Part shown: in pieces, positions 28,513 to 53,107 of the stretch
How positions within the stretch are numbered: the first letter of the stretch is position 1
Layout: each line of letters opens with the position of its first letter
Assembly (NCBI RefSeq): GCF_054482595.1
Contig: NZ_CM137008.1
Reading direction: 5' to 3' (one strand)
Length of the DNA stretch: 64,000 nt
Notes under the pieces: generated by a model
Seen by the model: only the letters and a program-made list of their open reading frames with translations
Told to the model about the DNA's origin: nothing
Databases searched by the model: none
Position numbers and translations under genes: made by a program

Positions 28513-28563
28513 TCACCTCGCCAGAACCTACCAGAATATGATGTTGGTGGTAATGACTCCAAC

Positions 28564-29261: not shown

Positions 29262-29396
29262 TGGAGCACCTCAAAAACACCATCATACACTAAATCAGTA
29301 AGTTGGCAGCATCACCCGCAGGACTTAGGTGCCGTAGCCTTAGTACCAAAAGGCGATACCTCTGGCGCTGACCGTAAAGGTCTTTTCAATCGTTCA

Positions 29397-30932: not shown

Positions 30933-30942
30933 TATTCTTTCC

Positions 30943-31992: not shown

Positions 31993-32410
31993 GCTGTTCT
32001 TCCCCTTTAAAAAATAAATATGTTCGCCCTTGATGCAGGATTAAATAGTTGTTATCAGGCGCCATTAATTTTTAGTTACATTAATGCAGAGCGAATACGG
32101 GAATTGCGTTTTCTCATAATAAAATGTGATTTTACGCACATAAAATAGGGCTTAATGGCTGGCGTTGTTATTTGTGAAGATTTCATTGAAAATAAATAAT
32201 AGCGATTTAATTGATTCTCTCCGAACTGAGATATAAATGGCGAATTTATGTTAATCTCATCACGTTTTTCATATTGTGATCCCCGGAACATATGGGAAAT
32301 GCATATTCCCCTGTTTACGCAGTGAGAATTGCTCCAGAATACTCGTTACGCAGTTAAATTTGATTTGAATGATATGCTGTTATCAGCGACGTACGTCACA
32401 GGAGTTTATA

Positions 32411-33781
32411 ATGCCAGGCAGTCAAAGTTCGGTATTTGATTCAGAATTGTATTCCTCTCTCTTCACGCAGCCGGAGATGAAATCAATCTGGTCCGATGAT
32501 AATCTTCTTCGCTGTTGGCTGACCTTTGAAGCAACCATCGCGCATGTGCAGACTGAGTTAGGTATTATTCCCCCTGAAGCCGCCGCGGAAATTTCCGCCG
32601 CCTGCCAGACGCTGAAAATAGACTGGCCGCGCCTCGCCAGGGAAACGCGTTCCGTCGGTATGGCGATTAAGCCTCTGGTTGATCAAATTGCCGATGCGGG
32701 TTCCCCTTTGGTCAAAAAATACCTTCACTGGGGCTGCACGACTCAGGATCTGCTGGATACCGCCCTGGCCATGCGCATGAAGCAAACCCTGCAATTACTG
32801 CGCAGACAGTTGGTGCAGTTGGGCGAAACGTTGAAAGCTATGGCGCTTGAGCACCGACATACGGTGATGGTCGCCAGAACGAATTCCGTCGATGCTTCCG
32901 CCACGACGTGGGGGCTACACGTCAGCAGCTATCTGTCCGAGCTAACCCGCCACCTTCAGCGCCTGGATCGCCTCTACCCGGCAGCGACTACCGGCCTGTT
33001 TGGTGGCGCGGTCGGCAACCTGGCCTCCGTCGGCAGCCAGGGAATGGCGATACGTAAGCAATTAATGGGCGCGTTAGGGTTGTCATGCCCTGTCGGTATG
33101 AGCAATGCCAGTCAGGATCATGTAGTCGAAGTGGTGCAGTTTTTTGCCCTGGTGCATGGCACGCTGTGTCGCATGGCCAACGACGTTGAAACGCAGGGCC
33201 GCACGTCCGTGGGCGAGTTGCGTGAAGGCGAAGGCGGTGGAGGATCCAGTACGATGCCACACAAGACGAATCCCCGCGCGAGCAATATGATCCAGACGCT
33301 TTCCCGCATGGGCTGGAACTATGCCTCTGGTGCAACCAGCCTTCTCGATCAGTGTGACGTGCGTGCTGCCTCCGCCCGCGTACTCAACTGGACGCTGGTA
33401 CCGGAGTCGGCGCTGGCCTTGTCGGCCAGCCTTGAACGTGCTGTCCGGTTAATTACGCATCTGGTGGTGGACAAAGAGAAGATGCGCAGCAACTTCGCCG
33501 CTTCAAAGAACTTCATTATGTCGGAATCCGTCACCATGGTATTGGCTGAGAAAATCGGGCGTGGTGCCGCTTACGATCTGATGAAAGCGTTATTAAAAGA
33601 CGCAGACGGCTCTAAAGACCTGTTGCAGTGCATGCTGGAAAATCAGACCGTTATTGACGCGCTAACTGAGTCGGAGATTGTTGCTGCTTGCGATCCATTG
33701 TCTTATCTGGGCTGCAATGACGCGCTGATCGAAGAAACCGTCATAGCCTTCGACGATTACATTCATGTCCGGACGGCGTAG
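32411..33781 (+). CDS. fumarate-lyase-superfamily enzyme (adenylosuccinate-lyase / 3-carboxymuconate-cycloisomerase-like)
   Basis: ATG 32411 preceded by AGGAG; signature GSSTMPHKTNP (GSSxMPxKxN); substrate not inferable from sequence. Confidence 0.75.
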   Translation: MPGSQSSVFDSELYSSLFTQPEMKSIWSDDNLLRCWLTFEATIAHVQTELGIIPPEAAAEISAACQTLKIDWPRLARETRSVGMAIKPLVDQIADAGSPLVKKYLHWGCTTQDLLDTALAMRMKQTLQLLRRQLVQLGETLKAMALEHRHTVMVARTNSVDASATTWGLHVSSYLSELTRHLQRLDRLYPAATTGLFGGAVGNLASVGSQGMAIRKQLMGALGLSCPVGMSNASQDHVVEVVQFFALVHGTLCRMANDVETQGRTSVGELREGEGGGGSSTMPHKTNPRASNMIQTLSRMGWNYASGATSLLDQCDVRAASARVLNWTLVPESALALSASLERAVRLITHLVVDKEKMRSNFAASKNFIMSESVTMVLAEKIGRGAAYDLMKALLKDADGSKDLLQCMLENQTVIDALTESEIVAACDPLSYLGCNDALIEETVIAFDDYIHVRTA

Positions 33782-33834
33782 TCCAGAGCCATTCGCTTCC
33801 TGCCGAAAGCAGGTGTGCCGACAGGAAGCGGTCA

Positions 33835-34722
33835 TTATCCAGGAAGAGGTGAAAAGGTTTCAAAAAAGACAAACAGTTCCTCCAGTTGCTCGAAATTGCC
33901 CTCGCCTTCGCCTTTTTCATAGGCCAGATGCAACACCAGCTCAATAAAAAAGAAACCTACGATGCGGCTTTTGAATACGGATTGCGTATCGCTCGGCAAC
34001 ACAAACTGCAGATTACAAAATTTGCCGTACGGGTTGGACTCCGAGTTAGTAATCAGCACTACCGTCGCGCCTTTTTTACAACACCATTCGGTAACGCGAA
34101 TCACTACCCGGTTAAAACGGTAGTAGGAGAAAACGATCAGCACGTCCTGATCCGTAACGGTCAGCAATGACTTCGGCAACTCCCCAACGTCCATAGAAAG
34201 CAATGTAACCCGATCGCGGAAATATTTAATCAGCGTAGTAAAATGTTTCGCCATCGCATAGGAAGACGCGGGACCGATTACGTATATATGTCGGTTGGTA
34301 TTCAAAATAATGTCGATAAATTTATCCAGACTGTCAATATTGATATTATCTTTAAAATTCTCGAACAAGGTCGTAACATTCTTATTAAATTCGGAAACAA
34401 TTTGTTCCGTGGTAATCTTTTCTTTTACCTGAATGCGTGATGCCAGCTCAAACGGCGGCACCATTTTTTGCAGTGTCAGCGTATTTTCCAATGCCCGACG
34501 GAAGTCAGCGTAGCCGATAAATCCCAGCTTATTTAAAAAACGCCCAACCGTTGCTTTACTCACCATTGCATTGCGGGCAATGTCGATGATGCCGTGAAAA
34601 GGGAGTTCATTAAAATGTTCACGCATATACGCGTCAAGACGGTGTTCTGACTCGGTTAGTGAACATAACAGCACGGTTTTTGAAATATAGTCCTCTAATG
34701 TTAAAGGGGTATTTTTTTTCAT
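33835..34722 (-). CDS. RpiR/MurR-family transcriptional regulator (HTH + SIS domain)
   Basis: 295 aa; N-terminal HTH (...IIDIARNAMVSKATVGRFLNKLGFIGY...), C-terminal SIS-like region; divergent from the transporter gene. Confidence 0.7.
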   Translation of the reverse strand: MKKNTPLTLEDYISKTVLLCSLTESEHRLDAYMREHFNELPFHGIIDIARNAMVSKATVGRFLNKLGFIGYADFRRALENTLTLQKMVPPFELASRIQVKEKITTEQIVSEFNKNVTTLFENFKDNINIDSLDKFIDIILNTNRHIYVIGPASSYAMAKHFTTLIKYFRDRVTLLSMDVGELPKSLLTVTDQDVLIVFSYYRFNRVVIRVTEWCCKKGATVVLITNSESNPYGKFCNLQFVLPSDTQSVFKSRIVGFFFIELVLHLAYEKGEGEGNFEQLEELFVFFETFSPLPG

Positions 34723-35005
34723 AATTGTCGTCCTTACACACTACGGATAAAAAGATACTATATTCAGTATAGAGAATAACCTTATCACATAATAATGCTA
34801 TGCTATAGCCTTCCGTAAAGTGATTGACATATTTCCTGTTATGAGATCATGCGCACAAACCCCAGCGGGAAAAGCAATTTCTCATAGCTCACATTACCCT
34901 GATTCGATCATGATTTCATTACGGCATCAGTCTCTGAATTTATAGAGAATTAGGCGATCTAAATATAACTAGCCGTCATATATAGGAAAACAAAAGGACG
35001 ATCTC

Positions 35006-36382
35006 ATGACCGCATTTGTAATCGCAATCGTGATCACTATCATTGCAGCATGGTTAATCATCAAGAACTTCCAACCTCAGACGGTATTGCTGCTGGCTGG
35101 TTTGTCTTTACTGACCATTACTGCTGTCTTCTATCCTGATAATAGCATTCTCTACGGTAAGGCTAAATCAACCGGTTCCACCTGGCTGGATATCTTTACG
35201 TTTGCCAAAAATTCACTCTCCACACAGATCGCCGGTATCGGTTTGATCATCATGGCCGCGGGCGGCTTTGCCAGTTATATGGATCATATCAAAGCCTCCA
35301 ATGCAATGGTGAACGTCTGCATTCGTCCCCTGCAAATCATCAAGGCGCCCTACGTGATCCTGGCTGTGGGGTATATTTGCGCACAGTTGCTGCACGTCGC
35401 GATTTCCAGCGCCGCCGGGCTGGCGATGATGTTATTAGTGACGTTCTTCCCGGTGTTGGTACGACTGGGTGTCAGTAAAGCAGCGGCGGCGGCGATGATC
35501 GGTCTGTGCGCCTTTATGGACTTAGGCCCGGCGGTCGGCACGGCCAACCTGGCGGCTAAACATGCCGGTATGGAAGCCGCCGTTTACTTTGCGCACTATC
35601 AGATGCCGGTGGCTGTTGCCGTTATGTTGGTAGTGTCGGTGCTGATTTTCTTTACCGCCAAATATTATGACAAGAAAGATGGTCACGTGATGACCAGCCA
35701 GGTGGCGGACGACACGACGCCTCAGAGTGAGGATAGCGAAAAAGTGCCGGGGCTGTATGCTTTCCTGCCTGTATTCCCTGTGATTCTGGTGCTGGTCTTT
35801 AGCCCGTTGGTCATCTCCACCATTAAAATCGACGTAGTTACCGCCATGATTGTCGGCACAATACTGGCGTTCGTCTGCGAACTGTTCGTTAAACGCGACT
35901 TCCGTGCCTGCTGTAAAGGTGTACAGGTATTTTTTAAAGGAATGGGCGGGATGTTTACCAGCGTGGTTTCATTGTTAGTGTGTGCGGATATCTACGCGCA
36001 GGGAATGCAAAAAATCGGCGCGGTGGATTACCTGTTGGAGATGGTGCAGAACGCGGGCTTTGGCTTTGCCAGCATGACCGTGGTGATGACGCTGCTGGTA
36101 GGTATAACCGCTGTACTGACGGGCTCCGGGGTTGCGGCATTTTTCTCTTTCTCCGGCATGGCGCCTGCTATCGCCACTAAATTTGGCGAAAGCGCTGTAC
36201 ATATGATTCTGCCGATGCAACTGATGGCTGGAATGGGACGTTCCATTTCTCCCGTCGCAGGGATCATCATTGCGGTCAGCAAAGCCGGTGAATGTTCACC
36301 GTTCATGATAGTGCGCAGGACCTTAATTCCGGCGCTCGGCGGCATGCTTACCATGTTGCTGGCTAACTACCTGTTGTTCTGA
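35006..36382 (+). CDS. DcuC-family (C4-dicarboxylate-type) membrane transporter
   Basis: 458-aa polytopic membrane protein; size and composition resemble DcuC as I recall it. Confidence 0.55.
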   Translation: MTAFVIAIVITIIAAWLIIKNFQPQTVLLLAGLSLLTITAVFYPDNSILYGKAKSTGSTWLDIFTFAKNSLSTQIAGIGLIIMAAGGFASYMDHIKASNAMVNVCIRPLQIIKAPYVILAVGYICAQLLHVAISSAAGLAMMLLVTFFPVLVRLGVSKAAAAAMIGLCAFMDLGPAVGTANLAAKHAGMEAAVYFAHYQMPVAVAVMLVVSVLIFFTAKYYDKKDGHVMTSQVADDTTPQSEDSEKVPGLYAFLPVFPVILVLVFSPLVISTIKIDVVTAMIVGTILAFVCELFVKRDFRACCKGVQVFFKGMGGMFTSVVSLLVCADIYAQGMQKIGAVDYLLEMVQNAGFGFASMTVVMTLLVGITAVLTGSGVAAFFSFSGMAPAIATKFGESAVHMILPMQLMAGMGRSISPVAGIIIAVSKAGECSPFMIVRRTLIPALGGMLTMLLANYLLF

Positions 36383-36469
36383 AGGACGTGTCGTCAGTGC
36401 GATGCCATTAAATCCAGAGAGCCAGGCGAGAGTACTTTGTTGTCAACATCAGTTAGCCGGACGTAAGTT

Positions 36470-38164
36470 ATGACCCACGAAATCACAGACAATTTACTTT
36501 ATATCCCTTATGCAGGCCCGGTATTACTGGAATCCCCGCTGCTGAACAAAGGCAGCGGGTTTACTGAAACAGAACGCGCAATGTTTAACCTGAGCGGGCT
36601 GTTGCCCGCAGCGGTTGAGACGATTGAAGAGCAGTCGCTGCGGGCCTATCAGCAATTCCTGGATATCAAGTCGGATATTGCCCGTCATATCTTTCTGCGC
36701 AATATTCAGGATACCAACGAGACGCTGTTTTATCACCTTGTGAGCAAGCACCTGGTGGAAATGATGCCGATTATTTATACCCCGGTAGTCGGACATGCGT
36801 GTGAACACTTTTCCGACATCTATCGCCGCGCCAGGGGATTATTCATCGCCTGGCCGGACCGGCATATGATCGACGAAATATTGCATAACGCCACAAAGCA
36901 GAATATTTCGGTGATTGTCGTCACTGACGGGGAGCGGATCCTCGGCCTGGGCGATCAGGGAATTGGCGGCATGGGGATTCCTATCGGCAAACTTTCGTTG
37001 TACACCGCCTGCGGTGGTATTAAGCCGTCGCATACGCTGCCAATCTTATTGGATGCGGGAACGAACAATTCCCAATTGCTCAATGACCCTTTGTATATGG
37101 GTTGGCGTCATCCGCGCATCACCGGCGACGCATATTTTGAGTTCGTCGAGATGTTTATCCGCGCGGTTAAGCGCCGTTGGCCGGACGTGCTATTACAGTT
37201 CGAAGATTTTGCCCAACAGACGGCGATGCCGCTGCTGACCCGCTATCGTGATGAGATCTGCTGTTTTAATGATGATATCCAGGGTACCGCAGCGGTGACT
37301 TTGGGATGCCTGATGGCGGCAAGCCAGGCCTCCCAACGTCGGTTATGTGACCAAACGGTAGTCTTCCTGGGCGCGGGATCGGCCGGATGTGGCATTGCCG
37401 AACATATCGTCACGCAGATGGTGGCTGAAGGGTTGACCGATGAGCAGGCCCGTTCACGCATTTTCATGGTGGATCGCTTTGGCCTGCTTACGGACGATCA
37501 AACTAATCAGGCTCCTTTCCAGTCACCGCTGGCGCAGCCGCGGTCGCGTTTGGCGAGCTGGGGCGGTCAGCAGGAGGCGTACTCGCTGATGGACGTGGTA
37601 AGCCAGGCTAAACCGTCCGTTCTGATTGGCGTCAGCGGGCAGCCAGGACTATTCAGCGAAGCGGTGATCGGGGAAATGTATCGTCACTGTTCGCAACCGA
37701 TAGTTATGCCACTTTCCAACCCAACCTCGCGCGCAGAGGCACGGCCGGAAGATATTCTGCGCTGGACCGATGGTAACGCGTTAATCGCCACCGGCAGCCC
37801 GTTCGAGCCGGTAAGCCACGGGGGAAAATTGTATCCTGTTGCACAATGCAATAATGTTTATGTCTTCCCTGGTGTGGGTCTCGGCGTGATGGTTAGCCGT
37901 GCCACACGCGTCACGGATAACATGATGATGGCGGCCAGCCGCACGCTGGCAAGTTGTTCGCCGCTGGTGCGCGACGGGCGTGGTCCGCTGTTGCCCAGTA
38001 TTAATGACATCCGGCAGGTGACGCAGGCCATCGCCCTTGATGTTGCTCTGGCTGCTCAACGTGATGGCGTCGCCGTAAATATCCCGCAGGAAACCTTGCA
38101 ACATAACATTTCGAGCGGATTCTGGGAGCCGCAGTATCTTCAGTACAAGCGCACCTCATTCTGA
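36470..38164 (+). CDS. NAD-dependent malic enzyme (MaeA/SfcA paralog)
   Basis: 564 aa; ...[22 protein letters not shown]...[34 protein letters not shown]...[13 protein letters not shown]... tracks E. coli MaeA closely but is clearly diverged. Confidence 0.85.
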
Positions 38165-38280
38165 TAAGCAGTCTGTAGCGGGAAGATCTTGATACCGTTG
38201 GTAACGGCGGTATCAATTCCGTAAAAGCCGCATGGCCCGTATCTGTTCCGAGTGTATCCGGTGTTATGGTAGCGCAATCG

Positions 38281-38700
38281 TCACCGGGCATAGCGACCCG
38301 GCAGATTCATACACAGTTTCGTCTCCTCGGCATAGAAATGCGGCAGGTTCCGCTGATAGTCAGACGGCGTTACACCACAAAGCATTTTGAAATCTTTGCT
38401 GAAATGGGCCTGATCATGGAAATCGAGGTCACAAGCAAGGGTGCGCAAATCGACCACGCCGTGATGGATGCGCCGGCACGCTTCATTTACTCTGAGAATA
38501 CGGACAAACGATTTCCAGGAAACGCCAATCCTCTCCTGGCAGAAGCGGTTAATGTGCCGGGCGCTGTATGACGTCATCTCGGACAAGCTATTAAGACGAA
38601 TGCCCCCGTTCAGCGGGGAAGCATGCGTCAGTACCTGACGCAGCAGCGGTTTTTCCTCCAACACAGCGAAGGTGGAAGTTGAGAATAACTCCTTAAGCAA
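38281..38700 (-). pseudogene. AraC-family regulator, HTH domain only (sensor domain cut off by IS1 copy B)
   Basis: 139-aa ORF with an AraC-type HTH; an in-frame stop lies between it and the IS1 end at 38821. Confidence 0.55.
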
Positions 38701-38820
38701 AGGTAGCCCGCAGAAGTATACTGAACGCTATAAAGAATGTAGTGGAGATGCTGGTTGTGAACAGCAGATCCGTAAGGATATGGCGAAAGAATCGGCGGAA
38801 AATGTTCTTAAGTTGAAGTC

Positions 38821-39588
38821 GGTGATGCTGCCAACTTACTGATTTAGTGTATGATGGTGTTTTTGAGGTGCTCCAGTGGCTTCTGTTTCTATCAGCTGTC
38901 CCTCCTGTTCAGCTACTGACGGGGTGGTGCGTAACGGCAAAAGCACCGCCGGACATCAGCGCTATCTCTGCTCTCACTGCCGTAAAACATGGCAACTGCA
39001 GTTCACTTACACCGCTTCTCAACCCGGTACGCACCAGAAAATCATTGATATGGCCATGAATGGCGTTGGATGCCGGGCAACAGCCCGCATTATGGGCGTT
39101 GGCCTCAACACGATTTTACGTCACTTAAAAAACTCAGGCCGCAGTCGGTAACCTCGCGCATACAACCGGGCAGTGACGTCATCGTCTGCGCGGAAATGGA
39201 CGAACAGTGGGGCTATGTCGGGGCTAAATCGCGCCAGCGCTGGCTGTTTTACGCGTATGACAGGCTCCGGAAGACGGTTGTTGCGCACGTATTCGGTGAA
39301 CGCACTATGGCGACGCTGGGGCGTCTTATGAGGCTGCTGTCACCCTTTGACGTGGTGATATGGATGACGGATGGCTGGCCGCTGTATGAATCCCGCCTGA
39401 AGGGAAAGCTGCACGTAATCAGCAAGCGATATACGCAGCGAATTGAGCGGCATAACCTGAATCTGAGGCAGCACCTGGCACGGCTGGGACGGAAGTCGCT
39501 GTCGTTCTCAAAATCGGTGGAGCTGCATGACAAAGTCATCGGGCATTATCTGAACATAAAACACTATCAATAAGTTGGAGTCATTACC
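38821..39588 (+). mobile_element. IS1 (complete, 768 bp), copy B, inverted relative to copy A
   Basis: Starts GGTGATGCTGCCAACTTACTGAT at 38821 and ends ...ATCAATAAGTTGGAGTCATTACC at 39588; insA 38876-39151, insB 39070-39573. InsB differs from copy A at two residues (S65R, S88R), so the copies are not identical. Confidence 0.95.
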
Positions 39589-39594
39589 GACACA

Positions 39595-42500
39595 TCAGAA
39601 ACGATATTCCACACTCAACATGGCAGATGTATTATGGTATCCATGTTCTCCAAGTTGAATGCCTGCATCAGCCCGGAATGCTACTTCTGGTGTTATCATT
39701 CCCACAACACCACCATTTATTTCTCCGATATCACGCGCACCATCCTGGTATATACTTACACCATTCATACTGGTGCCGAAAACACGACTATTGTGCAACC
39801 AGTGTGCCTCCACAAATGGTCTGAACGGAACCGCATACCGCGTATTTTTACCGTTTTTGCTGGTAAGCCATGTTCTTGCTCCCAGGCGGGTGAGAATATT
39901 TCCGTTACCGGTATTTTCAATACTGGTTCCGTTACTTTCATGATATTTGTCTGATTTTACATTCATCCGGACAACCTGAAGCTGCGGCTGAACATACCAT
40001 TCATGACTTCCCTTGTAATTGTCGGTAAACTCTCCAGCCTTCCATGAATATCCTGCTTCCAGAGATACCGTAAACCCTTTTGACTTCCATGACTCAGCAG
40101 GCAGCCGTTCTCCATTTATATGATTATCAAACCAGCTGTATTGCAGCCAGCTATCAAGATAAGAACCATTGTGTGTTTCATCATTGGCATACCATGTTGC
40201 ATAAAGACCCGCTGTGTATCCATTCATTCTTCCTTCCGAATGGTATCCGGTGCTCAGGGCATTCGTACTGTTATTATTATGACCATAGCCAGCCATCATA
40301 CCTGTATGCCAGCGATCGGTACCATTCAGGCTCCACTGAGCTATATCTCCCCCTATTAACACAACGTAGCTATTCCCCCGGGTTCTCAGCTGACTACTGT
40401 TGTCACGCCAGCGATTATGTTTTCCTTTATTATACATCCAGATACCTGCTTCATTTTCTTCTCCTGTCATGTGGCTGATATACAACTCCTGTCCCTGTCG
40501 TTCATACAGATTCGTTACAAACAGATTATTTGCAGCAGCAATACTGGCAACATAGCTACCTGCCTCAGGACGCAAATTATTATCATGGCTTTCCGGTACA
40601 GCTTCAGGTTGTGGTACAGGAATGTCTTTTCTGCTAATCAGATACCAGTTAGTGCTGTTAATCCCCTGACCACGTTTCAGTATGTAATCATAAGCTCCGG
40701 CTGTAATACGTTCCGTCTGAATGAATTCAGCATTATCAGCATTGCCACTGACGTGAATCACTTCAATCCCATTAAGTGTCTCTGCACCAGTACCACCGGC
40801 CTGAGTAACAGCGACACGGGTACGGCCACTGGCATTACCTTTAATCACCAGACGATCTGTTTTCGAATTGTCACCACCTGTTTCTGTCTGGAGGAGAATA
40901 AGTCCATTTCTGCCAGTGTAATTCCCTCCGACAGTCAGTATATTACCCGGCATATATGTAGTGAGATCGACTATACCACTATTGCTCAGATTTCCTGCAA
41001 CGCCCCCAAACCCGGAGAGTTTGCCCTGCTCTTCAACAATGACCTGGTTACTGCCGAGCATCACCGGTGAATCTGCGTTCCCCAGTATCACTGTCCCCTG
41101 AATAATATCTGTCATCCCGGTCCATTTTGCGTTATCGCTAATGTTCAGTGCACCTGCTCCCGTCTTGCGAACATTACCATAACCACTGATATTGTTGGTA
41201 AGCTGCCATGCTGATGTACTGTTCAGAGTTAATGTGCCATAGTTATCAACAAAGGCTGTCCCCAGATTATCAGCCGTGGATACAGCCAAATGAGCCCCCT
41301 TATTCACGGTAAAAACACCGGAAAAATTACGATTATTACCCGTTATATCAAGCATTCCCCCATTTATGTTCAGAGAACCATCCCCTGCAATAGTACCTGC
41401 AGATTCTCCTCCATTATTCAGTATCAGACTTCCGCCATGAATGTTCAGCACAGAGCCTGCAGCCGTCAGTAGTTTGCTTATTGTCTGAGGATACCCATTC
41501 ATATCCAGTTCTGCGCCACGGGATAAATATAAATACTCAGTCCGACCAAGAGCATCAGGTGCAGCAAGAATTAATACGCCAGATTTAACCTCTGTATTTC
41601 CTGTATAATTGTTTGTTGCAGAAAGTATAAGAGTACCATTACCTGATTTTGTCAGACTTTTGCCGTCCCAGCCATCATATAATAAAGGTGAAAGATTATC
41701 GGAAAGAGAAACGCCTATGTTCAGAGTGGCATCTTTTTCTATATTAAAGGTTCCATATCCCATCCCTTTTGTATTATTCCATCTCAGCATGGATATCAGT
41801 TTGTTATCGTCGTCATTTAAAGACGTATAAACATAACTTTCAGCACCTTCTGTCAGTAATACATTGTATTGTACAATGTGACTATTATCAGCGATCGAGA
41901 TACCTGTGTCTGACGACAATAATGTGTAATAGTCCTGAGTCCAGTTCTTAATTGATGTGTCTATATTAAGCCATGAATCACTTTTTAATGTAATAGTATT
42001 TGCGTGAACATTAGCATTTCCTACAGACAGGTTCATAGATGCGTCTTCATCAATACTTATATTTCCGTTAAAAATGGAGTTCTTGCCTGACAGATAAACA
42101 GATGAGCCATTCCCAATCATTAGCCCACCATTAATTGCTGTTGCGTTATTGATGTTTTTAATAATTAATTCATTTGTACCATTAACAGGTATACTAGCTA
42201 GTTTAATATCACCATTAATCACAGAATCTGAATAAATATCTAATGAATTATACCCGCCAGAAAAAATTATTGATGTATTATAAGCATCTTTTTGGCTATT
42301 ATATAATCCTGAAAGATTACCATGATTATTAATATGGATATCTTCTCCATAAACAGAGCAACCACCGTCGGGGCCATATCCCCCCTGAACAATACCGTTA
42401 TTATTCAAAGTGATTTGATTTCCAGAAATAGCATCTCCCCCTTGTTTTATTCCATATCCTCCAGATATCATGTTGTCGTTAGTAATGAAAAGATTACTAC

Positions 42501-43092
42501 CATTAATACCATCACCACCGTTTACGCCATTACCGCCCAATATTCCTCCGGAATTATGCACTGTAATATTGCTACCGGTTACACCGGAACCACCTGTCCC
42601 ACCTACATCATCACCTCCGTATATACTTCTGTAATTATCAACTATAATATCATCCCCGCTTAACCCTGCACCTCCGCTACTTCCTGAGCCACCAAGACCA
42701 TTACCCCCATATACATTTCTGTAATTGTTTATAGATATTTTGTTGCCACTAACAGCAATTCCACCATTATATCCATCTCCTCCCCAAACACTACCATTAT
42801 TATTTAGCGTAAAGTTTTCACCGTAGACACCTGCACCACCGATTGATGTATTGCTTGTTCCTCCTTTGATGTTAATACTGCTTTCAACAGATAGTATATT
42901 TTGAGTATAACTTGTTTTATACGGCACGCTGATATTAAGCGCCGCGTTTCCATCAACACCTGTAATACTCCTGGTTATACTTTCAGGTATACCATTACCA
43001 TTCAGTTGTATTGTTTGCGCACCAGAAAAATGAGACTGCACAGAATAAAGTATACTGACCAGAAATTGTAAAATTCGTATATTCTTATTCAT
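39595..43092 (-). CDS. autotransporter adhesin (type Va), AIDA/pertactin-like Gly-rich passenger
   Basis: 1165 aa; signal peptide; repeated GG-x-G and NxS/T passenger repeats; C-terminal beta-barrel ending ...SAMLSVEYRF; AT-rich gene. Confidence 0.8.
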   Translation of the reverse strand: MNKNIRILQFLVSILYSVQSHFSGAQTIQLNGNGIPESITRSITGVDGNAALNISVPYKTSYTQNILSVESSINIKGGTSNTSIGGAGVYGENFTLNNNGSVWGGDGYNGGIAVSGNKISINNYRNVYGGNGLGGSGSSGGAGLSGDDIIVDNYRSIYGGDDVGGTGGSGVTGSNITVHNSGGILGGNGVNGGDGINGSNLFITNDNMISGGYGIKQGGDAISGNQITLNNNGIVQGGYGPDGGCSVYGEDIHINNHGNLSGLYNSQKDAYNTSIIFSGGYNSLDIYSDSVINGDIKLASIPVNGTNELIIKNINNATAINGGLMIGNGSSVYLSGKNSIFNGNISIDEDASMNLSVGNANVHANTITLKSDSWLNIDTSIKNWTQDYYTLLSSDTGISIADNSHIVQYNVLLTEGAESYVYTSLNDDDNKLISMLRWNNTKGMGYGTFNIEKDATLNIGVSLSDNLSPLLYDGWDGKSLTKSGNGTLILSATNNYTGNTEVKSGVLILAAPDALGRTEYLYLSRGAELDMNGYPQTISKLLTAAGSVLNIHGGSLILNNGGESAGTIAGDGSLNINGGMLDITGNNRNFSGVFTVNKGAHLAVSTADNLGTAFVDNYGTLTLNSTSAWQLTNNISGYGNVRKTGAGALNISDNAKWTGMTDIIQGTVILGNADSPVMLGSNQVIVEEQGKLSGFGGVAGNLSNSGIVDLTTYMPGNILTVGGNYTGRNGLILLQTETGGDNSKTDRLVIKGNASGRTRVAVTQAGGTGAETLNGIEVIHVSGNADNAEFIQTERITAGAYDYILKRGQGINSTNWYLISRKDIPVPQPEAVPESHDNNLRPEAGSYVASIAAANNLFVTNLYERQGQELYISHMTGEENEAGIWMYNKGKHNRWRDNSSQLRTRGNSYVVLIGGDIAQWSLNGTDRWHTGMMAGYGHNNNSTNALSTGYHSEGRMNGYTAGLYATWYANDETHNGSYLDSWLQYSWFDNHINGERLPAESWKSKGFTVSLEAGYSWKAGEFTDNYKGSHEWYVQPQLQVVRMNVKSDKYHESNGTSIENTGNGNILTRLGARTWLTSKNGKNTRYAVPFRPFVEAHWLHNSRVFGTSMNGVSIYQDGARDIGEINGGVVGMITPEVAFRADAGIQLGEHGYHNTSAMLSVEYRF

Positions 43093-45135: not shown

Positions 45136-45594
45136 GACAGCCTGACGTTTGACTTCTGGTTCAAAGGGCGCAACCGGGTTGGCCTTACTGGTAAATATAC
45201 GTCGTCTGTCGGGATAAAGGTAAGCGTAAACTGACCGCCGTATGTAGCCATCAGACGAGAATTGGTAACTTAGACGCCCATCTGATATAGACGGACATCT
45301 AAGTATGGAATTACAGGACTGGCGAAAAGAACCTCGTAAAAACTATTCGAATGAATTCAAACTTCGTATGGTGGAACTGGCATCACAACCTGGAGCTTGT
45401 GTTGCACAGATTGCACGTGAAAATGGCGTCAATGATAATGTTATTTTCAAATGGCTCAGGCTCTGGCAGAACGAAGGGCGTGTTTCGCGGCGTCTTCCGG
45501 TAACGACCTCTTCTGACACTGGCGTTGAATTATTACGGGTATACGGATTTAATGGTTGATGGGGCACCTTTACCCCACCAACCTGATACCATTA

Positions 45595-46872
45595 TCAGAT
45601 GGTTGATAGATCGACCCCGTAGTTGAGTTCCTCTGCGAAGTCCGGCAGTCCGTAACCGATGGTTTTCTTGTAGAACGGAGAGACCTTCGCGGTCGGGGCC
45701 TTCTTCTTGTGCTTCGTGGTGTAGAGCATTCGTGCCCGCATCACCTCGAAGGAGTAACCACGTCCTTCACGGTTCTTGTCCTTGGCCAGTCGGTTGATGG
45801 ACTCCGTGTAAGCGTTGGTGACGGGCATGTCCGTCTCGAAGTAGGTCATGATCTCTTCGCGCCAGTTGCCTACAGCCCTGACCAGATCGCTCCAGACTTC
45901 CTTCTGGCCCTTCGGGATGGTGGCTATCCACTCGTCCAGGGCGGCTTCTGCCTGGGGCCGTGTGGTAGCGTCCCAGATGCCGTAGAAACGTTCCTTGTGC
46001 TCGTAGGCGGCCAGCAGTTGTGGGAATGCGCCGGTCCAGGTCTCCATGATGAGGCGTTCCCGGTTTGAGACTTCGTGAGCGCGTTTCAGCAGGATTTTCC
46101 GGTCACCCTTGAGGGTTCGGCTCTGGGAGGGCATCAGCTCCTTCCTGAGGCCCTTGCGCACCTTCTCCAGGGCATCGTTGGCCATGCGCACCACATGGAA
46201 CTTATCGACCACGATGCGGGCCTGTGGCAGCACCGCCTTGACCGCTGCTCGGTAGGGATTCCACATGTCCATGCTGACGATCTTGACCTTCTGCCGGTCT
46301 TTCATCTTCATCAGGTAGTTGGTCACCACGTCCTGACGGCGGGTGGCCAGCAGGTCGAGCAGGGTCCTCTCCTCGATGTTGGTCAGGATGCAGCGGTAGC
46401 GCTTGTTCAGGTACAACTCGTCAATGCCGAGAATGCGGGGCGTCTCGAAGCGGTGCCAGCGCCCCAGGAATTCGGCGCGGGCGTTGAAAATGTCGCGTAC
46501 CGTCTTCTCGTCCAGGCCCGTGGTATCAGCCACGTAGGCGTAGGGGTGATTGAAGGCTTCCTTCTCCACGTACTCATGCAACCGCAGCGTCATGCGGAAG
46601 CCGTCCACCATCTCCGGTAGCTGGGGCCTGAAGGTGGTCTTGCAGGCCCGGCAGGTGTACCGGCGACGAACTACCCAGAGGGTGACCCGCTTGCCGTGGA
46701 TGGGCAGGTCACGATAGGGAACATCACGCTTGCCGAACCGCACGAACTCACCCTGCACGCAGCACCCCTCGCAGGCTACTGGTGTAGGTGCTTCAAGCCG
46801 AAAATGTATGTCTTCATTCTGCTCATCAGAATCCACCAACTGGTAACCAGGAAGGCTTAACGAATTAATCAT
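45595..46872 (-). CDS. ISL3-family transposase
   Basis: 425-aa ORF; N-terminal Cys cluster (CEGCC...CRAC) and DDE-type core; family by recollection. Confidence 0.7.
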   Translation of the reverse strand: MINSLSLPGYQLVDSDEQNEDIHFRLEAPTPVACEGCCVQGEFVRFGKRDVPYRDLPIHGKRVTLWVVRRRYTCRACKTTFRPQLPEMVDGFRMTLRLHEYVEKEAFNHPYAYVADTTGLDEKTVRDIFNARAEFLGRWHRFETPRILGIDELYLNKRYRCILTNIEERTLLDLLATRRQDVVTNYLMKMKDRQKVKIVSMDMWNPYRAAVKAVLPQARIVVDKFHVVRMANDALEKVRKGLRKELMPSQSRTLKGDRKILLKRAHEVSNRERLIMETWTGAFPQLLAAYEHKERFYGIWDATTRPQAEAALDEWIATIPKGQKEVWSDLVRAVGNWREEIMTYFETDMPVTNAYTESINRLAKDKNREGRGYSFEVMRARMLYTTKHKKKAPTAKVSPFYKKTIGYGLPDFAEELNYGVDLSTI

Positions 46873-46884
46873 CTCCCGCCTTGA

Positions 46885-47919
46885 TCAGAAAAACAGGTAG
46901 GTGGCGTAACCGGCAATCATCGCCATAGCAAAAATGACTGCTAAAAACGCCGCTAAAAGCTTCAGCGTGAACAAAGAGCGCAACAGAATGAGCTCAGTCA
47001 GGCTGGCTCCGGCACTGCCGATGATCAACGCAAGCACCGTCCCGGCACCCACGCCTTTGGCCATCAGAGCCGCTGCCAGAGGTATGACGGCTTCAGCGCG
47101 AATATACAACGGCACGCCGATGACAGCGGCAACTGGAATGGCAAAGGGATTATCTGGGCCTGCATACTGCTCCAATAAGTCAGTGGGCATGAAACCATAG
47201 ATCACGCTGCCAATCGCAATAGCGATGAGCAGGTAAGGCAACACATCGATAAAGTCCGACCAAGCTTCCCGCCACACACCATTGTACTTCCCTTCTTTCT
47301 TAACCGTGACAGTGGGTTGACTGTCACAGCATTCGCTAGACGTAGAGACTGTTGTCTTCCTATCAGCCCCGCAAGAAGCCGTCTTCGGAGTGGTGTCGCA
47401 GCTGTTGGTGCCGCAACTCGATGCGGTCGATGTAGCACTGCACGGGCTTGCTGATGAACTACATCCACTGCTCTCTTGTGTCGCCGTCCGGCGCACATAA
47501 CGCTCGAAGCCAAGCGTGTGAAGCAGCCATCCGGCACCTACCGCGACCACCAAAGCGGCGAGCACATAGATAGCAGTAAGTGTCCATCCAAACGTGGCAA
47601 CCAGCAGGCCGACGACGATAGGATTCAGCAACGGAGATGTGAAAAGAAACACCATCATCGGCCCAAAACCGGCCCGTGCCTGAATCAACCCTTTCAACAT
47701 GGGGATAGTCGAGCAACTACAGAAGGGCGTTATAGCTCCTAAACCAGCAGCAAGAAAATAGCCTCGCTTCCCACTGGAAGTCAGTAACGCTTCCACCTTG
47801 GATGGTGGGATGTGACGTTGAAGAACTCCGACCAGCAAGCTAATGCCAATGAATAAAACCGATAGCTCGATAGCGAGAAAGGCGAACATGCCTAGAGCGT
47901 CTTGGAGTTGAGGTGACAT
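46885..47919 (-). CDS. ArsP-like / DUF318-type permease with Cys/Ser/Thr-rich central loop
   Basis: 344-aa polytopic membrane protein with a low-complexity Cys-rich loop (...SSGCSSSASPCSATSTASSCGTNSCD...). Confidence 0.5.
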   Translation of the reverse strand: MSPQLQDALGMFAFLAIELSVLFIGISLLVGVLQRHIPPSKVEALLTSSGKRGYFLAAGLGAITPFCSCSTIPMLKGLIQARAGFGPMMVFLFTSPLLNPIVVGLLVATFGWTLTAIYVLAALVVAVGAGWLLHTLGFERYVRRTATQESSGCSSSASPCSATSTASSCGTNSCDTTPKTASCGADRKTTVSTSSECCDSQPTVTVKKEGKYNGVWREAWSDFIDVLPYLLIAIAIGSVIYGFMPTDLLEQYAGPDNPFAIPVAAVIGVPLYIRAEAVIPLAAALMAKGVGAGTVLALIIGSAGASLTELILLRSLFTLKLLAAFLAVIFAMAMIAGYATYLFF

Positions 47920-48018
47920 TCAATATTACTCCTATATTTCTAGTTTTATCGAAATGATGTACGCAGTCTACTTGCGTTTATCCGACCTGTCAACTATAAT
48001 TCTAGAAACATCGAATTA

Positions 48019-48345
48019 TTGGGGCGTGCTATGGATCACGAAAAGGTTGCAGCCAGCTTAGCTGAGCTAGGGAATAGTCACCGACTGTCCGTGTTCCGCT
48101 TTCTGGTCAAAGCTGGCCATGATGGGGCTTCGGTCGGAGATATCCAGAAGGGGCTGGGTATTCCTGCTTCGACGCTATCACATCACCTTGCGCGCATGGC
48201 CAAGGTAGGGCTGATCCGGCAGGAGAAACATAGCCGCACGATTGTCTGTATACCCGAGTATGGGCACCTAGAGAATTTGATCGGTTTCTTACAAGAGGAA
48301 TGTTGTGCAGGTGTCCGGATTGCGCATGAACCAGAACCGCTTTGA
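48019..48345 (+). CDS. ArsR/SmtB-family metalloregulator
   Basis: 108 aa; HTH ...VGDIQKGLGIPASTLSHHLARMAKVGLIRQEK...; divergent from the permease gene. Confidence 0.7.
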   Translation: MGRAMDHEKVAASLAELGNSHRLSVFRFLVKAGHDGASVGDIQKGLGIPASTLSHHLARMAKVGLIRQEKHSRTIVCIPEYGHLENLIGFLQEECCAGVRIAHEPEPL

Positions 48346-48719
48346 CGCTTGCCCAGCTCTCGCTGTCCTCCCTAGTCAGCATCGCTATGAAGACTCAGGC
48401 GAAGGTGGAAACAGAAAATTGGCAGTAGAGTAGGCTGAAGAGGATCAATCAGATAATCCGCTGAGAAAGATTTTCTTCTTTACATCTTTGACATTTTATC
48501 AACCAGAAATTCCGGATACCCATTATTACCTGTAGAAATAACGCCGGATGAGCAGAAAGAACCTGTGGCGGCCATTGCGCCGTCTTTATCCACTTCCACT
48601 CAGACCAGAGTCAGTGCCAGTTCCTGCAAGGTGGAATTCCGTCACGGTAACATGACGCTGGAAAATCCATCGCCAGAGCTGCTCACGGTGTTGATCCGTG
48701 AACTGACCGGGAGGGGAAG

Positions 48720-49070
48720 ATGATCTCACTCCCATCAGGTACCCGTATCTGGCTCGTTGCCGGCGTTACCGATATGCGTAAATCCTTCAACGGACTGGGA
48801 GAACAGGTACAACATGTGCTGAATGATAATCCCTTCTCCGGTCACCTGTTTATCTTCCGTGGCCGACGGGGTGACACCGTTAAAATTCTTTGGGCTGATG
48901 CTGATGGTCTGTGCCTGTTCACCAAACGCCTGGAGGAAGGCCAGTTTATCTGGCCTGCGGTACGTGACGGCAAGGTATCCATTACCCGCTCGCAACTGGC
49001 AATGCTCCTCGATAAGCTGGACTGGCGTCAGCCAAAAACATTCCGCCTTAACGCACTGACAATGTTGTAA
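48720..49070 (+). CDS. IS66-family TnpB (orf2)
   Basis: 116 aa; MISLPSGTRIWLVAGVTDMRKSFNGLGEQVQHVLNDNPFSGHLFIFRGRRGD...; start overlaps tnpA stop (ATGA). Confidence 0.85.
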   Translation: MISLPSGTRIWLVAGVTDMRKSFNGLGEQVQHVLNDNPFSGHLFIFRGRRGDTVKILWADADGLCLFTKRLEEGQFIWPAVRDGKVSITRSQLAMLLDKLDWRQPKTFRLNALTML

Positions 49071-49100
49071 AAAACGCCTGGCCGCATTATAAAAACGGCC

Positions 49101-50486
49101 ATGAGTCAGAAATACCTCATTCGCATTGCAGAACTGGAAAGCCAGCTCCGTCAGAAAGACCAGCAACTGAGTCTGGTTGAAGAGACGGAGGCCTTCCTGC
49201 GCTCTGCACTGGCACGTGCCGAAGAAAAGATCGAAGAAGATGAACGGGAAATAGAACATCTGCGGGCTCAGATAGAAAAACTGCACCGGATGCTGTTCGG
49301 TACCCGTTCTGAAAAACTGCGTCGTGAAGTTGAACTGGCTGAGGCTCTGCTGAAACAACGTGAACAGGACAGCGATCGTTACAGTGGGCGGGAAGACGAT
49401 CCTCAGGTTCCCCGCCAGTTGCGACAGTCGCGCCATCGTCGTCCGTTACCGGCACACCTTCCCCGTGAAATACACCGCCTGGAGCCAGAAGAAAGCTGTT
49501 GCCCGGAGTGTGGCGGTGAGCTGGATTATCTGGGGGAAGTCAGCGCTGAACAGCTGGAACTGGTGAGCAGTGCCCTGAAAGTGATCCGCACAGAACGGGT
49601 AAAAAAAGCCTGTACAAAATGTGACTGTATTGTTGAAGCACCGGCGCCGTCCCGCCCGATAGAGCGTGGTATCGCGGGCCCCGGATTACTTGCCCGCGTG
49701 TTAACGGGAAAATACTGCGAACATCTGCCACTGTATCGTCAGAGTGAAATCTTTGCCCGCCAGGGTGTCGAACTGAGCCGGGCCTTACTCTCCAACTGGG
49801 TTGACGCGTGCTGCCAGTTAATGACACCGGTGAATGATGCCCTGTACCGTTATGTAATGAATACCCGCAAGGTTCACACTGATGACACACCGGTAAAGGT
49901 ACTGGCACCGGGTCAGAAAAAGGCGAAAACAGGGTGTATCTGGACGTATGTCCGGGATGATCGCAATGTGGGTTCGTCATCTCCTCCAGCGGTCTGGTTC
50001 GCGTACTCGCCGAACCGGCAGGGGAAACACCCGGAGCAACACCTTCGCCCCTTCCGGGGTATCCTGCAGGCGGATGCGTTCACAGGTTACGACAGGTTGT
50101 TCAGTGCAGAACGTGAAGGTGGTGCACTGACAGAAGTTGCGTGCTGGGCCCATGCCCGGCGAAAAATCCACGATGTATACATCAGCAGCAAAAGTGCGAC
50201 GGCAGAAGAAGCCCTGAAGCGAATCAGTGAACTGTACGCCATCGAGGATGAAATACGGGGGTTACCAGAGTCAGAGCGTCTTGCAGCCAGGCAGCAGCGA
50301 AGCAAAGCGTTACTGACGTCGCTGCATGAATGGATGGTGGAGAAGAATGGCACGCTGTCGAAAAAATCCAGACTGGGCGAAGCGTTCAGCTATGTACTGA
50401 ATCAGTGGGACGCCCTCTGTTATTACAGTGATGATGGTTTGGCAGAAGCGGACAATAACACAGCTCAAAAAAGATTTCGTTCGTGA
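49101..50486 (+). CDS. IS66-family transposase TnpC (orf3), C-terminally truncated
   Basis: 461 aa with leucine-zipper-like N-terminus, CPECGG zinc motif and DDE core; ends ...ADNNTAQKRFRS, short of the usual length. Confidence 0.8.
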   Translation: MSQKYLIRIAELESQLRQKDQQLSLVEETEAFLRSALARAEEKIEEDEREIEHLRAQIEKLHRMLFGTRSEKLRREVELAEALLKQREQDSDRYSGREDDPQVPRQLRQSRHRRPLPAHLPREIHRLEPEESCCPECGGELDYLGEVSAEQLELVSSALKVIRTERVKKACTKCDCIVEAPAPSRPIERGIAGPGLLARVLTGKYCEHLPLYRQSEIFARQGVELSRALLSNWVDACCQLMTPVNDALYRYVMNTRKVHTDDTPVKVLAPGQKKAKTGCIWTYVRDDRNVGSSSPPAVWFAYSPNRQGKHPEQHLRPFRGILQADAFTGYDRLFSAEREGGALTEVACWAHARRKIHDVYISSKSATAEEALKRISELYAIEDEIRGLPESERLAARQQRSKALLTSLHEWMVEKNGTLSKKSRLGEAFSYVLNQWDALCYYSDDGLAEADNNTAQKRFRS

Positions 50487-50597
50487 GGTCATGATGCAGT
50501 AAGCTTCATTTCGCGCACAGCCATCCCCCTGAAATCTGGCTGACTGTTATTTCGCAACAGTTATTGAGTAAATCTTTAACCTGTTAACAGAGGGTTT

Positions 50598-51122
50598 ATG
50601 AAACGTAAACTTATTGCCTTTGTGATTCTGGCTACATCATCCTGTGGATATGCAGCCACCAAAGATGTAACAATGAATCTTGTTGATAGTGACGGAAAAG
50701 AGCGAAATATTGGTAAAATAACCATCCAGAAGACACCCTACGGGCTGCTGTTCACCCCTGATCTTCACTCCTTACCCGCCGGCATTCATGGTTTTCATGT
50801 ACATGAAAACGCAAGTTGTGCTCCTGCCCTGAAAGATGGAAAAACTGTCGCTGCTTTATCTGCAGGTGGTCACTTTGACCCGGAAAAAACAGGGAAGCAT
50901 CTCGGTCCATGGTCTCCTGATGGCCACCTAGGTGATCTCCCTGCGCTTTATGTCACTCATGACGGAAAAGCAACCTACCCGGTGCTTGCGCCAAGACTAT
51001 CTGAATTAAAGGAGCTCGATGGCCGTTCGCTAATGCTCCACGCAGGAGGTGATAATCATGATGACCATCCTGAACCTCTAGGTGGCGGTGGTGCAAGAAT
51101 TGCCTGTGGTATCATCCCATAA
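50598..51122 (+). CDS. sodC: periplasmic Cu,Zn superoxide dismutase
   Basis: 174 aa with signal peptide; [10 protein letters not shown]...[17 protein letters not shown]...[11 protein letters not shown]...[12 protein letters not shown] matches the SodC metal-ligand pattern; diverged from chromosomal E. coli SodC as I recall it. Confidence 0.9.
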
Positions 51123-52412
51123 TCAATCAGGTAAGGGATATCCTCCCTTACCCTTAATCTTCCCTGGCTGCATGTGCATATCTTTCAGTTACTGTGAGAT
51201 ACCTGTATTACGGTGTCTTTTTAGCTCACAGAAATATCAGACAGCCCGTTTCAGTGTTTTATTACCTTAATCTTTTTACGGCATTCTTCAGCTCTTGCGC
51301 ATGCTATTTTTTCACCTGTTTCATAACATTGCTGGCAGCCTAATCCAAATTTCATCGCCATATCATAACCTTCCCGAAAACCTCGGAACCACGCGTTACG
51401 AAGGTATTCATCATATTCCCCGCAGTCAATAATAACCATTTTATTTTCATGGGATTTTCCGGTATTCTCACTCATTTTCGATACCTCAATGCTTACAACA
51501 GAAAAGTATACTTTTACGAAGTTCGCCTTTGCAGGACTATATAAAGTTATCACTGGATGCAAGAGCCGGAAATCCTGTATATCAGGATCAACTTTGTAAT
51601 TCAATAACATATTATCCAGTGAAAAATTAAGTATATTTAAGCTGGGGAAGGAGAAGGGGGACTTGATTTGATAGTTTCATCAATAATATTATTTTACCTC
51701 CTCCATTATTCATTCAGGCCTGGTTCCGGGCGTAATTCCGATTTCTCTGTTGAAGCGATGCATTTATATTTAAATATTCACCTGTCATTGAATTTTATTT
51801 GAAATAGGAGAAAATCTCCTCCTGTACTACAGATAACCCGGAATGTTCCTCGAAAGAAAATTCTGGCGCAGAATTCACGCCCGGTTCTGTTCAACATCAT
51901 GCAGGATAACGATACCGAAACGTTAAACTCTGGCAATTCTCGTGTTATACACAGGCAGGAGTGATTACTACGGTAAGAATTGCTGAAAAGGGGAGAACAC
52001 TGAAGGCCTTATTCGCGAAGAATAAAGGAGACATTTCATGTAAATTATTATCAGAGATAACCTTCTCCAGGCGCTTTTGTTCGCTTCCTGAATTGCTACC
52101 TGATACATATTTACGGGATGCCAGCCTAGCGACTATAACTCCGAAAAGACCGATTATTGTATTGCGTGCATCCGGCATGTTTACAATGTACGCTGGTATC
52201 TAACGGAGTCTGACACAGATGCACGCAGGTGTGTATTTTAACGTAATTATCCGGAAAGAACAGTATATTTTAATGCGGGAGTTGCATGAGCGGTATACGG
52301 GAGAAACTATCAGACCATGGGAGCTACAGAGGTGCTTAAGTCTCGTAACATTATAATCTGCTCACCTGACTGGTGCTATTCTCACCTCAACACCAATGCA
52401 CAAATAGCCTAG

Positions 52413-53107
<695 letters not shown>

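Follow-up and report, generated by a model that had tools for sequence, protein, structure and literature searches.

The product of the sodC-type gene described here is most probably a functional, periplasmic Cu,Zn superoxide dismutase (SOD) of the E. coli prophage SodC-F lineage, and its host carries it as an accessory enzyme in addition to that of the core sodC gene. It appears to form a stand-alone, moron-like cassette of ribosome-binding site, open reading frame (ORF) and terminator within a decayed mosaic genomic island. We put the probability of this reading at about 80%. The window that we analysed, that is, the whole stretch of DNA, is 64,000 nucleotides long, and the features around the gene are collected in Table 1. 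Mobile elements are well known to supply an accessory periplasmic Cu,Zn-SOD in addition to the core sodC, and the island sodC is an ordinary accessory gene in this sense.

Table 1. Features of the sodC neighbourhood in window coordinates.
Feature	Position	Strand	Basis and remarks
IS66 left end: left inverted repeat from GTAAGCG and 5' part of tnpA	45220..45536	+	100% identity to the ISEc23 left end on pESA139_2
ISL3-family transposon inside IS66 tnpA	45537..48521	-	24-nt imperfect terminal inverted repeats; 8-bp target duplication ATTATTAC
IS66-family (ISEc23-like) right-hand part: tnpA 3' end, tnpB, truncated tnpC	48522..50464	+	99.9% identity to an intact copy; junction alignment; Pfam/NCBIfam
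Last 38 bp (with stop codon) of an SBP_bac_8 solute-binding-protein gene	50465..50502	+	intact gene upstream of sodC in other E. coli
5' untranslated/intergenic region	50503..50597	+	50534-50597 alone kept in all contexts
Ribosome-binding site GAGGG	50590..50594	+	sequence; blastn similarity to prophage sodC starts here
sodC-type CDS	50598..51122	+	ORF; Pfam, NCBIfam and PHROG matches; RefSeq annotation in identical loci
Signal peptide, residues 1-20	50598..50657	+	alignment with SodC-F; pattern check; putative cut site
Terminator-like hairpin, 9 pairs, 5 G-C	51130..51152	+	8 nt after stop; inside the stretch conserved with prophage sodC
Right flank	51163..52390	.	present beside sodC in every chromosomal context, as far as an IS3 fragment; unrelated in sequence to the flanks of prophage sodC
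Orphan 74-aa ORF (WP_024210520.1)	51251..51475	-	open frame extends to 51610

The sodC ORF is uninterrupted from ATG to TAA (50598-51122, plus strand; 174 codons, 174 amino acids). Its product is identical to RefSeq WP_000823671.1, which is already annotated as SodC and occurs in more than 1000 public contigs. The Pfam family Sod_Cu (PF00080) matches residues 39-173 over positions 3-133 of its 133 model positions (E 6e-32; 111.3 bits against a cut-off of 28.9). The best NCBIfam model is the SodC equivalog NF007628, matched over positions 1-172 of 172 with 218.4 bits (cut-off 165). Both family matches are far above chance, and PHROG 1975, labelled 'superoxide dismutase precursor, moron', matches as well (E 2.8e-89). 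The closest solved structure is that of Salmonella SodCI (1EQW/6D52; E 1e-64), and E. coli SodC (1ESO) is matched at 1.4e-55. Besides the island gene, no second SodC-like sequence was found in the 64-kb window.

The island SodC was aligned with 14 relatives, including SodCI and E. coli SodC, for which structures have been solved. Residues H67, H69, H92, H101, H110, D113, H148, C74, C170 and R167 are invariant across the 15 sequences. The ligand columns were assigned from established structural work on 1ESO and 1EQW. By this assignment, H67, H69 and H148 are the Cu ligands, H92 the bridging His, and H101, H110 and D113 the Zn ligands, C74 and C170 are the disulfide pair, and R167 is the active-site Arg. 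The ORF encodes an intact Cu,Zn superoxide dismutase with the full catalytic residue set, as the preliminary description had stated of the gene and its metal ligands.

A predicted periplasmic export signal is present. At the N-terminus, a KRK n-region and a hydrophobic core precede GYA followed by A, and this segment aligns with the signal peptides of SodC-F and SodC; signal peptidase I likely cuts after GYA. The signal peptide also contains a lipobox-like ATSSC with Cys16, which fits the lipoprotein pattern in a pattern check. The corresponding lipobox of SodC-F is AASC, whereas K-12 SodC lacks the lipobox Cys. At the positions given in the literature for the dimer interface of the Photobacterium leiognathi enzyme (Y26, V29, M41, W83 and F96), the island SodC has Y48, L51, I63, W105 and Y118, which are hydrophobic as in SodC-F. 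In contrast, the monomeric E. coli SodC has charged K, E and E in place of Y48, L51 and I63, followed by a gap or shortened loop, or E, and by V; its GPEG-AGH loop is one residue shorter and has no equivalent of W105.

SodC-F1 and SodC-F2 of the E. coli O157:H7 prophages are dimeric, with a specific activity about threefold that of core SodC, and they resist proteinase K and EDTA and exceed core SodC, a monomer, in thermal stability (D'Orazio et al., 2008; PMC2569942). They are partly membrane-associated via the lipobox AASC, their signal peptide being cleavable by signal peptidase I or II (PMC2569942). Since the island protein has the Cys16 lipobox and interface residues like those of the 80%-identical SodC-F, it is, by analogy, probably a dimer of higher stability than the monomeric core SodC, perhaps with partial lipid anchoring via Cys16.

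The island SodC shares ~80% amino acid and 76% nucleotide identity with prophage SodC. These 76%-identical genes are the lambdoid-prophage sodC genes of O157, O145, O111 and O80 strains, which lie between the tail genes I and J (gpI/gpJ) in opposite orientation. Two further E. coli alleles are 82-83% identical at the amino acid level. One of them, P0003 (82%), is found on ~100-kb E. coli plasmids, where it adjoins an IS3 element. The other, P0002 (83%), is the closest allele of all, but it is known solely from a 969-bp contig and therefore gives no genomic context. Identity is 61-62% to SodCI and SodCIII, and 64-67% to Serratia and Pseudomonas SodC. In a neighbour-joining tree of the mature region, the island allele, P0002, the prophage alleles and P0003 form a clade with 92% bootstrap support, and SodCI, SodCIII and K-12 SodC fall outside it. 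The comparison with the chromosomal, sodCI and sodCIII alleles that the preliminary description had proposed thus gave the E. coli prophage SodC-F as nearest relative, not SodCI or SodCIII. On this tree, the island SodC is placed within the E. coli prophage SodC-F clade.

SodC-F1 and SodC-F2 resemble the island gene in belonging to the same clade and the same length class, and in being extra copies beside the core sodC. The SodCI gene of Gifsy-2 and the SodCIII gene of Fels-1 in Salmonella likewise encode horizontally acquired second or third periplasmic Cu,Zn-SODs, and they have all catalytic residues in common with the island SodC. However, they sit on separate branches of the tree and are both morons of prophage tail regions, and the SodCI signal peptide has no Cys, unlike that of the island protein. 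Orthology with SodCI did not hold: identity is 61%, the locus is another one, and the SodCI branch groups with an island gene of Salmonella enterica subsp. houtenae. That gene, which lies next to tRNA-Gly, and P0003 on its plasmids are other accessory sodC genes outside phages, likewise solitary and beside IS elements. Yet P0003 and the S. houtenae gene (55% identical, SodCI-like) are different alleles in neighbourhoods different from that of the island sodC.

Between the island allele and the O157 prophage allele, dN/dS is 0.08 at a dS of ~1.5 (Nei-Gojobori), and the lineage has therefore evolved under strong purifying selection. All 125 copies of the island allele are at least 99% identical, so that conservation within the allele says little about selection in its present context.

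We found the cassette in at least four different left-hand contexts, distributed over three species (E. coli, E. albertii and Salmonella). The IS66 junction of our window is one of these, found identically in 34 of 5426 genomes. In a second context, which is present in many chicken isolates including APEC O2-211, an intact gene for a solute-binding protein (SBP) lies upstream. In the third, the end of an IS3-family (IS1203-like) element abuts position 50534, 64 bp before the start codon. This arrangement was found in E. coli XDL, next to sitABCD. The same junction at 50534 occurs in Salmonella enterica directly beside dptFGH, whose sequence is 97.7% identical to the E. coli copies just past the right end of the window. 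The fourth context consists of 6 IncF plasmids of poultry E. coli and E. albertii, in which the insert lies in a backbone 3'-5' exonuclease gene downstream of repA-yacAB and extends from the last ~70 bp of the SBP gene to 51346, 51299 or 51183. The ORF is intact in every context while its flanks are cut, and the upstream sequence is cut at three points in different lineages. The gene upstream of sodC is co-directional with it in each of the four contexts.

The orphan 74-aa ORF downstream stays with sodC wherever the context is chromosomal, and the plasmid inserts do not contain it in full. This ORF, of 74 or 119 amino acids, matched no Pfam or PHROG family, and its homologs were found in a few Enterobacteriaceae only. 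The neighbourhood of sodC is mostly gene debris, namely pseudogenes and IS fragments. Collinearity of the window with strain EC11 throughout was ruled out by an unmatched stretch at 1-3123 and by the inversion of 29317-38820 between two IS1 copies. No tRNA gene, and hence no candidate tRNA integration site, was detected in the window or at the EC11 locus.

Among the 34 genomes with the IS66 junction, 15 came from chicken, turkey, duck or a chicken farm, and 8 represent one clone of dog and hospital-environment origin; the remainder came from humans, sheep, pig, mink and water. About half of an evenly spaced sample of all allele carriers came from chickens. These raw counts, which may include effects of sampling bias and clonality, point to an association of the island allele with poultry.

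We also observed on plasmid pCFSAN083828_2 that the autotransporter gene found at 39595-43092 of the window (99.9% identity) lies one IS3 element away from sodC. The autotransporter protein encoded in the window is 99.7% identical to a protein of REL606, which is a homolog of the APEC adhesin AatA (Dai et al.; PMC2944236).

Expression is the weakest link of the functional reading. A promoter scan of 50300-51700 gave no convincing sigma-70 promoter in 50465-50597, and the sole weak match to the -35/-10 consensus overlaps the sodC start codon. The repeats CTGTTATTT and CAGTTATTG at 50544-50566 have, by eye, a spacing that fits neither a PhoP nor a CRP box. An Rfam scan of 50300-53300 gave two hits only, one isrC-like and below threshold (52392-52474), the other a chance similarity of the junction to a CRISPR repeat. 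The scan of 50300-51700 found no plus-strand terminator between the upstream gene and sodC either. Since the upstream gene is co-oriented and no terminator intervenes, read-through is plausible. Transcription could then come from this gene, which is tnpC in our window, or from a non-canonical promoter within 64 bp of the start codon.

Alternatively, the intact ORF might not be expressed: the deletion upstream would have removed its promoter, and the gene would be a hitch-hiking remnant that has not yet decayed. No good promoter was seen in the 133 bp that separate the start codon from the IS66 break, the three different upstream cuts and the surrounding pseudogenes and IS fragments would suit such a remnant, and the near identity of the copies suggests that they are recent. 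Against this, ORF, ribosome-binding site and terminator have stayed intact in at least four contexts and three species in which the flanks are truncated. The recurrence of a co-oriented upstream gene without terminator in all four contexts also speaks for a transcribed gene, as does the low dN/dS over the long term. We consider a silent remnant unlikely, though it is the most serious competitor of the functional reading.

The preliminary description had placed the gene directly after the broken end of an IS66 element, and the junction agrees with this. IS66 stops inside tnpC at 50464, 133 bp upstream of the sodC start codon, and ~230 bp of the tnpC end and the right inverted repeat are missing; RefSeq calls tnpC 'incomplete, missing C-terminus' in identical loci. 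The intact IS66 copy that matches the right-hand part lies on p14EC020b (L005 1501-3443). The left end, which the preliminary description does not mention, has been kept, parted from the right-hand part by the 2,985-bp ISL3-family transposon, whose genes encode a transposase, an ArsP-type permease and an ArsR-family regulator.

The break at 50464/50465 reads ...AACACAGC/TCAAAA, and the junction in the alignment is ...GACAATAACACAGC/TCAAAAAAGATTTCG (slashes mark the break). Other E. coli genomes, such as that of the chicken isolate E16, match the window at 99.9% identity over the 8.5 kb that begin with sodC and extend to the right, and an intact-looking SBP_bac_8 gene of 353 amino acids lies upstream; in these genomes the gene ends ...GTACAGTACACAGC TCAAAAAAGATTTCGTTCGTGAGGTCATGATGCAGTAA. 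Positions 50465-50502 of the window are therefore its last 38 bp. The motif ACACAGC is common to both parents, IS66 tnpC and the SBP gene, exactly at the break. In the simplest reading, an IS66 copy would have been present upstream of sodC, and a microhomology-mediated deletion would have taken its right end together with most of the SBP gene. Reading the first bases of the plasmid cassette, from 50440, as a 25-bp IS66 remnant was ruled out by the alignment and the E16 locus, which trace these bases to the 3' end of the SBP gene and its resemblance to tnpC.

These observations bear on the idea that sodC is a passenger of IS66, or of an IS66 composite transposon, and was delivered by IS66 transposition. 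The gene does directly adjoin IS66 sequence, on pESA139_2 the same sodC is closely followed by an intact ISEc23, and IS66-family elements recur near sodC on plasmids. However, the end that faces sodC is an internal break without inverted repeat, the window holds no second IS66 end or copy downstream, and no target duplication brackets sodC. Moreover, the genomes with the matching right-hand context carry the intact SBP gene and no IS66, 38 bp of this gene persist in the window, and only 34 of the about 121-125 allele carriers have the IS66 junction. Delivery by IS66 is highly improbable on these grounds. We infer instead that IS66 is a deletion scar beside an already-present sodC, not its vehicle.

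The limits of the cassette are sharp. Similarity to prophage sodC in blastn spans 50590-51162 only, which comprises the ribosome-binding site, the ORF and the hairpin, and it ends 8 nt 5' of the start codon and 40 nt 3' of the stop codon. The ribosome-binding site and terminator hairpin are thus conserved with SodC-F1/F2, whereas the upstream region with the promoter is unrelated; with similarity starting no more than 8 nt before the ATG, the characterised sodC-F promoter region is not shared. Unlike the prophage genes with their place between the tail genes I and J, the island allele is found outside prophages, on islands and IncF plasmids. Its neighbours are IS66, IS3 and the 74-aa orphan ORF rather than lambdoid tail genes. 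No phage structural genes were found within 10 kb of the island sodC, and its flanks are unrelated to phage sequence. The cassette looks like a moron that left its phage, or like a solitary gene that phages also acquired, and a phage origin of the cassette itself is likely. A different matter is whether the gene is a moron in a resident lambdoid prophage, like sodC-F1/F2 or the sodCI of Gifsy-2. Membership of the SodC-F clade and the PHROG 'moron' family would agree with that, but it is scarcely credible for a locus that lacks both the tail genes flanking the prophage copies and any phage structural gene within 10 kb, and at which similarity stops at the cassette limits.

Beside the core gene, the island sodC is an extra copy. 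Core SodC (b1646, 1ESO) shares the family, ligands, disulfide and export route with the island SodC, yet the two proteins have only 57% amino acid identity. A blastn search with the island gene at 65-70% sensitivity did not retrieve core sodC, which agrees with the divergence from the chromosomal gene noted in the preliminary description. K-12 sodC is flanked by ydhK and ydhF, and of 5426 complete E. coli genomes, all but one (5425) have core sodC at ≥95% identity. In contrast, the island allele lies among IS debris and was retrieved at ≥99% identity from 125 records by sensitive blastn (~2% of genomes), together with 571 further records with a 76%-identical prophage-type gene. With core sodC in 5425 of 5426 genomes and the island allele in ~125 records, it follows that the carriers hold both genes. 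The island sodC is hence neither the only sodC of its host nor a syntenic ortholog, and its earlier description as a horizontally acquired extra copy is upheld by these counts and identities. The view that the gene is simply the chromosomal sodC, or a diverged ortholog of that gene, which the shared family, the similar length and the SodC equivalog as best NCBIfam model might suggest, has practically no chance, given the 57% identity, the lack of a blastn connection, the absence of both ydhK-sodC-ydhF synteny and ≥95% nucleotide identity to K-12, and the contrast between a near-universal gene and an allele of ~2% of genomes in another neighbourhood.

Cytoplasmic SodA and SodB cannot protect the periplasm, and extra Cu,Zn-SODs on mobile elements help Salmonella and EHEC to survive host oxidative attack. 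The island enzyme would be exported and bind Cu and Zn. Superoxide that is unable to cross the inner membrane, for instance from the phagocyte oxidative burst, would be converted to O2 and H2O2 at the Cu centre, with Zn in a structural role. In SodC-F1/F2, expression occurs in log phase and anaerobically, is RpoS-independent, and is relatively enriched inside Caco-2 cells; the regulation of sodC-F differs from that of the core gene (PMC2569942). A link of the island allele to oxidative-burst resistance, as suggested in the preliminary description, draws on this literature on its relatives (PMC2569942) and may hold by analogy.

Our literature searches found no experimental study of the island allele. 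The only mention of it that we came across is in a supplementary alignment figure, where it is labelled 'E. coli SodC2' (PMC12352638). What our analysis adds is the placement in the SodC-F clade, the non-phage lifestyle on islands and plasmids in three species, and the corrected reading of the IS66 junction.

A bolder interpretation, which we regard as speculative and on balance doubtful, is that the gene represents a distinct third lineage of periplasmic SOD in E. coli. It would be dimeric and partly lipid-anchored, and islands and IncF plasmids would spread it, along with aatA and a dnd/dpt phosphorothioation island, among poultry-associated E. coli, E. albertii and Salmonella. It would then measurably raise survival in avian or mammalian phagocytes and be an unrecognised fitness factor of ExPEC and APEC. 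More remote still is a variant in which the recurrent position next to dnd/dpt stems from a functional connection of superoxide removal in the periplasm with the oxidant sensitivity of phosphorothioated DNA.

The island sodC leaves current understanding unchallenged. The locus illustrates clearly how deletions mediated by IS elements remodel an island around a single gene that stays intact. Our results show that a prophage-type SOD also circulates outside phages, on a chromosomal island and on conjugative IncF plasmids, often in poultry isolates and close to aatA. Expression of the gene would make it an inexpensive marker of ExPEC and APEC lineages and a candidate for a fitness factor in them.

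Two small features lie to the right of sodC, the gene for the accessory Cu,Zn superoxide dismutase (coordinates of these and the other features are collected in the table below). The first is an orphan ORF with a Cys-rich C-terminus, which had no family match in Pfam or PHROG and has homologs in only a few Enterobacteriaceae. Wherever sodC is chromosomal, this ORF accompanies it; the plasmid copies are truncated. The second is a match to the Rfam family of isrC, a Salmonella island sRNA, which at 33.5 bits (E 1e-4) stayed below the gathering score of 39 and is located just upstream of a degenerate IS3 fragment as annotated in the matching genomes. Further right, the IS3 copy of strain Santai that matches window ~54380-55600 contains a group II intron (ltrA; L001 25395-26903), which is absent from the window.

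Features flanking sodC in the window
Feature	Position	Strand	Remarks
IS1, two copies	28539-29316 and 38821-39597		
Autotransporter gene, 1165 aa	39595-43092	-	99.7% identity to the REL606 (E. coli B) protein, a homolog of APEC adhesin AatA (PMC2944236)
ISL3-family transposon	45537-48521		inserted in IS66 tnpA
Orphan ORF	51251-51610	-	74 aa annotated, 119 aa as open frame
isrC-like match	52392-52474	+	
Second autotransporter gene, 895 aa	56187-58874	-	
dndBCDE DNA-phosphorothioation cluster	59725-64000 and beyond		starts near right end of window; in EC11, L003 33226-48078

What comes after the 895-aa autotransporter gene differs between genomes: a polysaccharide lyase 8 / GH88 / aga-type PTS cluster in some relatives (Santai, E16), but a ProQ fragment and dndB in the window and in strain EC11. 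Hence, the right-hand neighbourhood is variable. The restriction genes dptFGH come after dndBCDE in EC11, together with a remnant of an integrase, and a phosphorothioate-dependent restriction endonuclease gene is found further left (L012 17207-18079).

To the left of sodC, the ISL3-family transposon is bounded by imperfect inverted repeats of 24 nt and an 8-bp target duplication, ATTATTAC. In addition to the transposase gene, two others are present, for an ArsP_1-type permease (344 aa; one loop is rich in Cys, Ser and Thr) and an ArsR/SmtB regulator. Possibly, these two genes form a passenger module for metal or metalloid resistance. The 1165-aa autotransporter gene is bordered by IS1 and IS91/IS3 fragments, and it recurs with the same sodC on plasmid pCFSAN083828_2 (L008), where one IS3 element lies between them. 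The two IS1 copies bracket a segment of ~9.5 kb (malic enzyme, dcuC, a fumarase/aspartase-family gene and a porin), which is inverted relative to EC11. Window 1-3123 had no counterpart within the EC11 stretch examined.

Other accessory sodC genes also occur outside phages. Salmonella enterica subsp. houtenae has a SodCI-like gene (55% identity to the island enzyme; L015 4001-4531) in an islet adjoining tRNA-Gly, beside an autotransporter barrel gene. The P0003 allele (82% identical; L016-L019 6001-6528) resides on E. coli plasmids of ~100 kb, where it has an IS3-family element on one side and a NERD/UvrD-helicase gene on the other, with P1-type ParAB genes nearby. At least two unrelated backbones of plasmids therefore carry a prophage-type sodC.

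A near-identical sodC with the 74-aa ORF (99.3%) was also found in Salmonella enterica GCA_004360265.1 (L022 1-8982), directly adjoining dptFGH genes that are 97.7% identical to those of E. coli. An IS3-family end fragment forms the joint between the two parts. This arrangement points to a recent inter-genus transfer of the sodC-dptFGH island segment.
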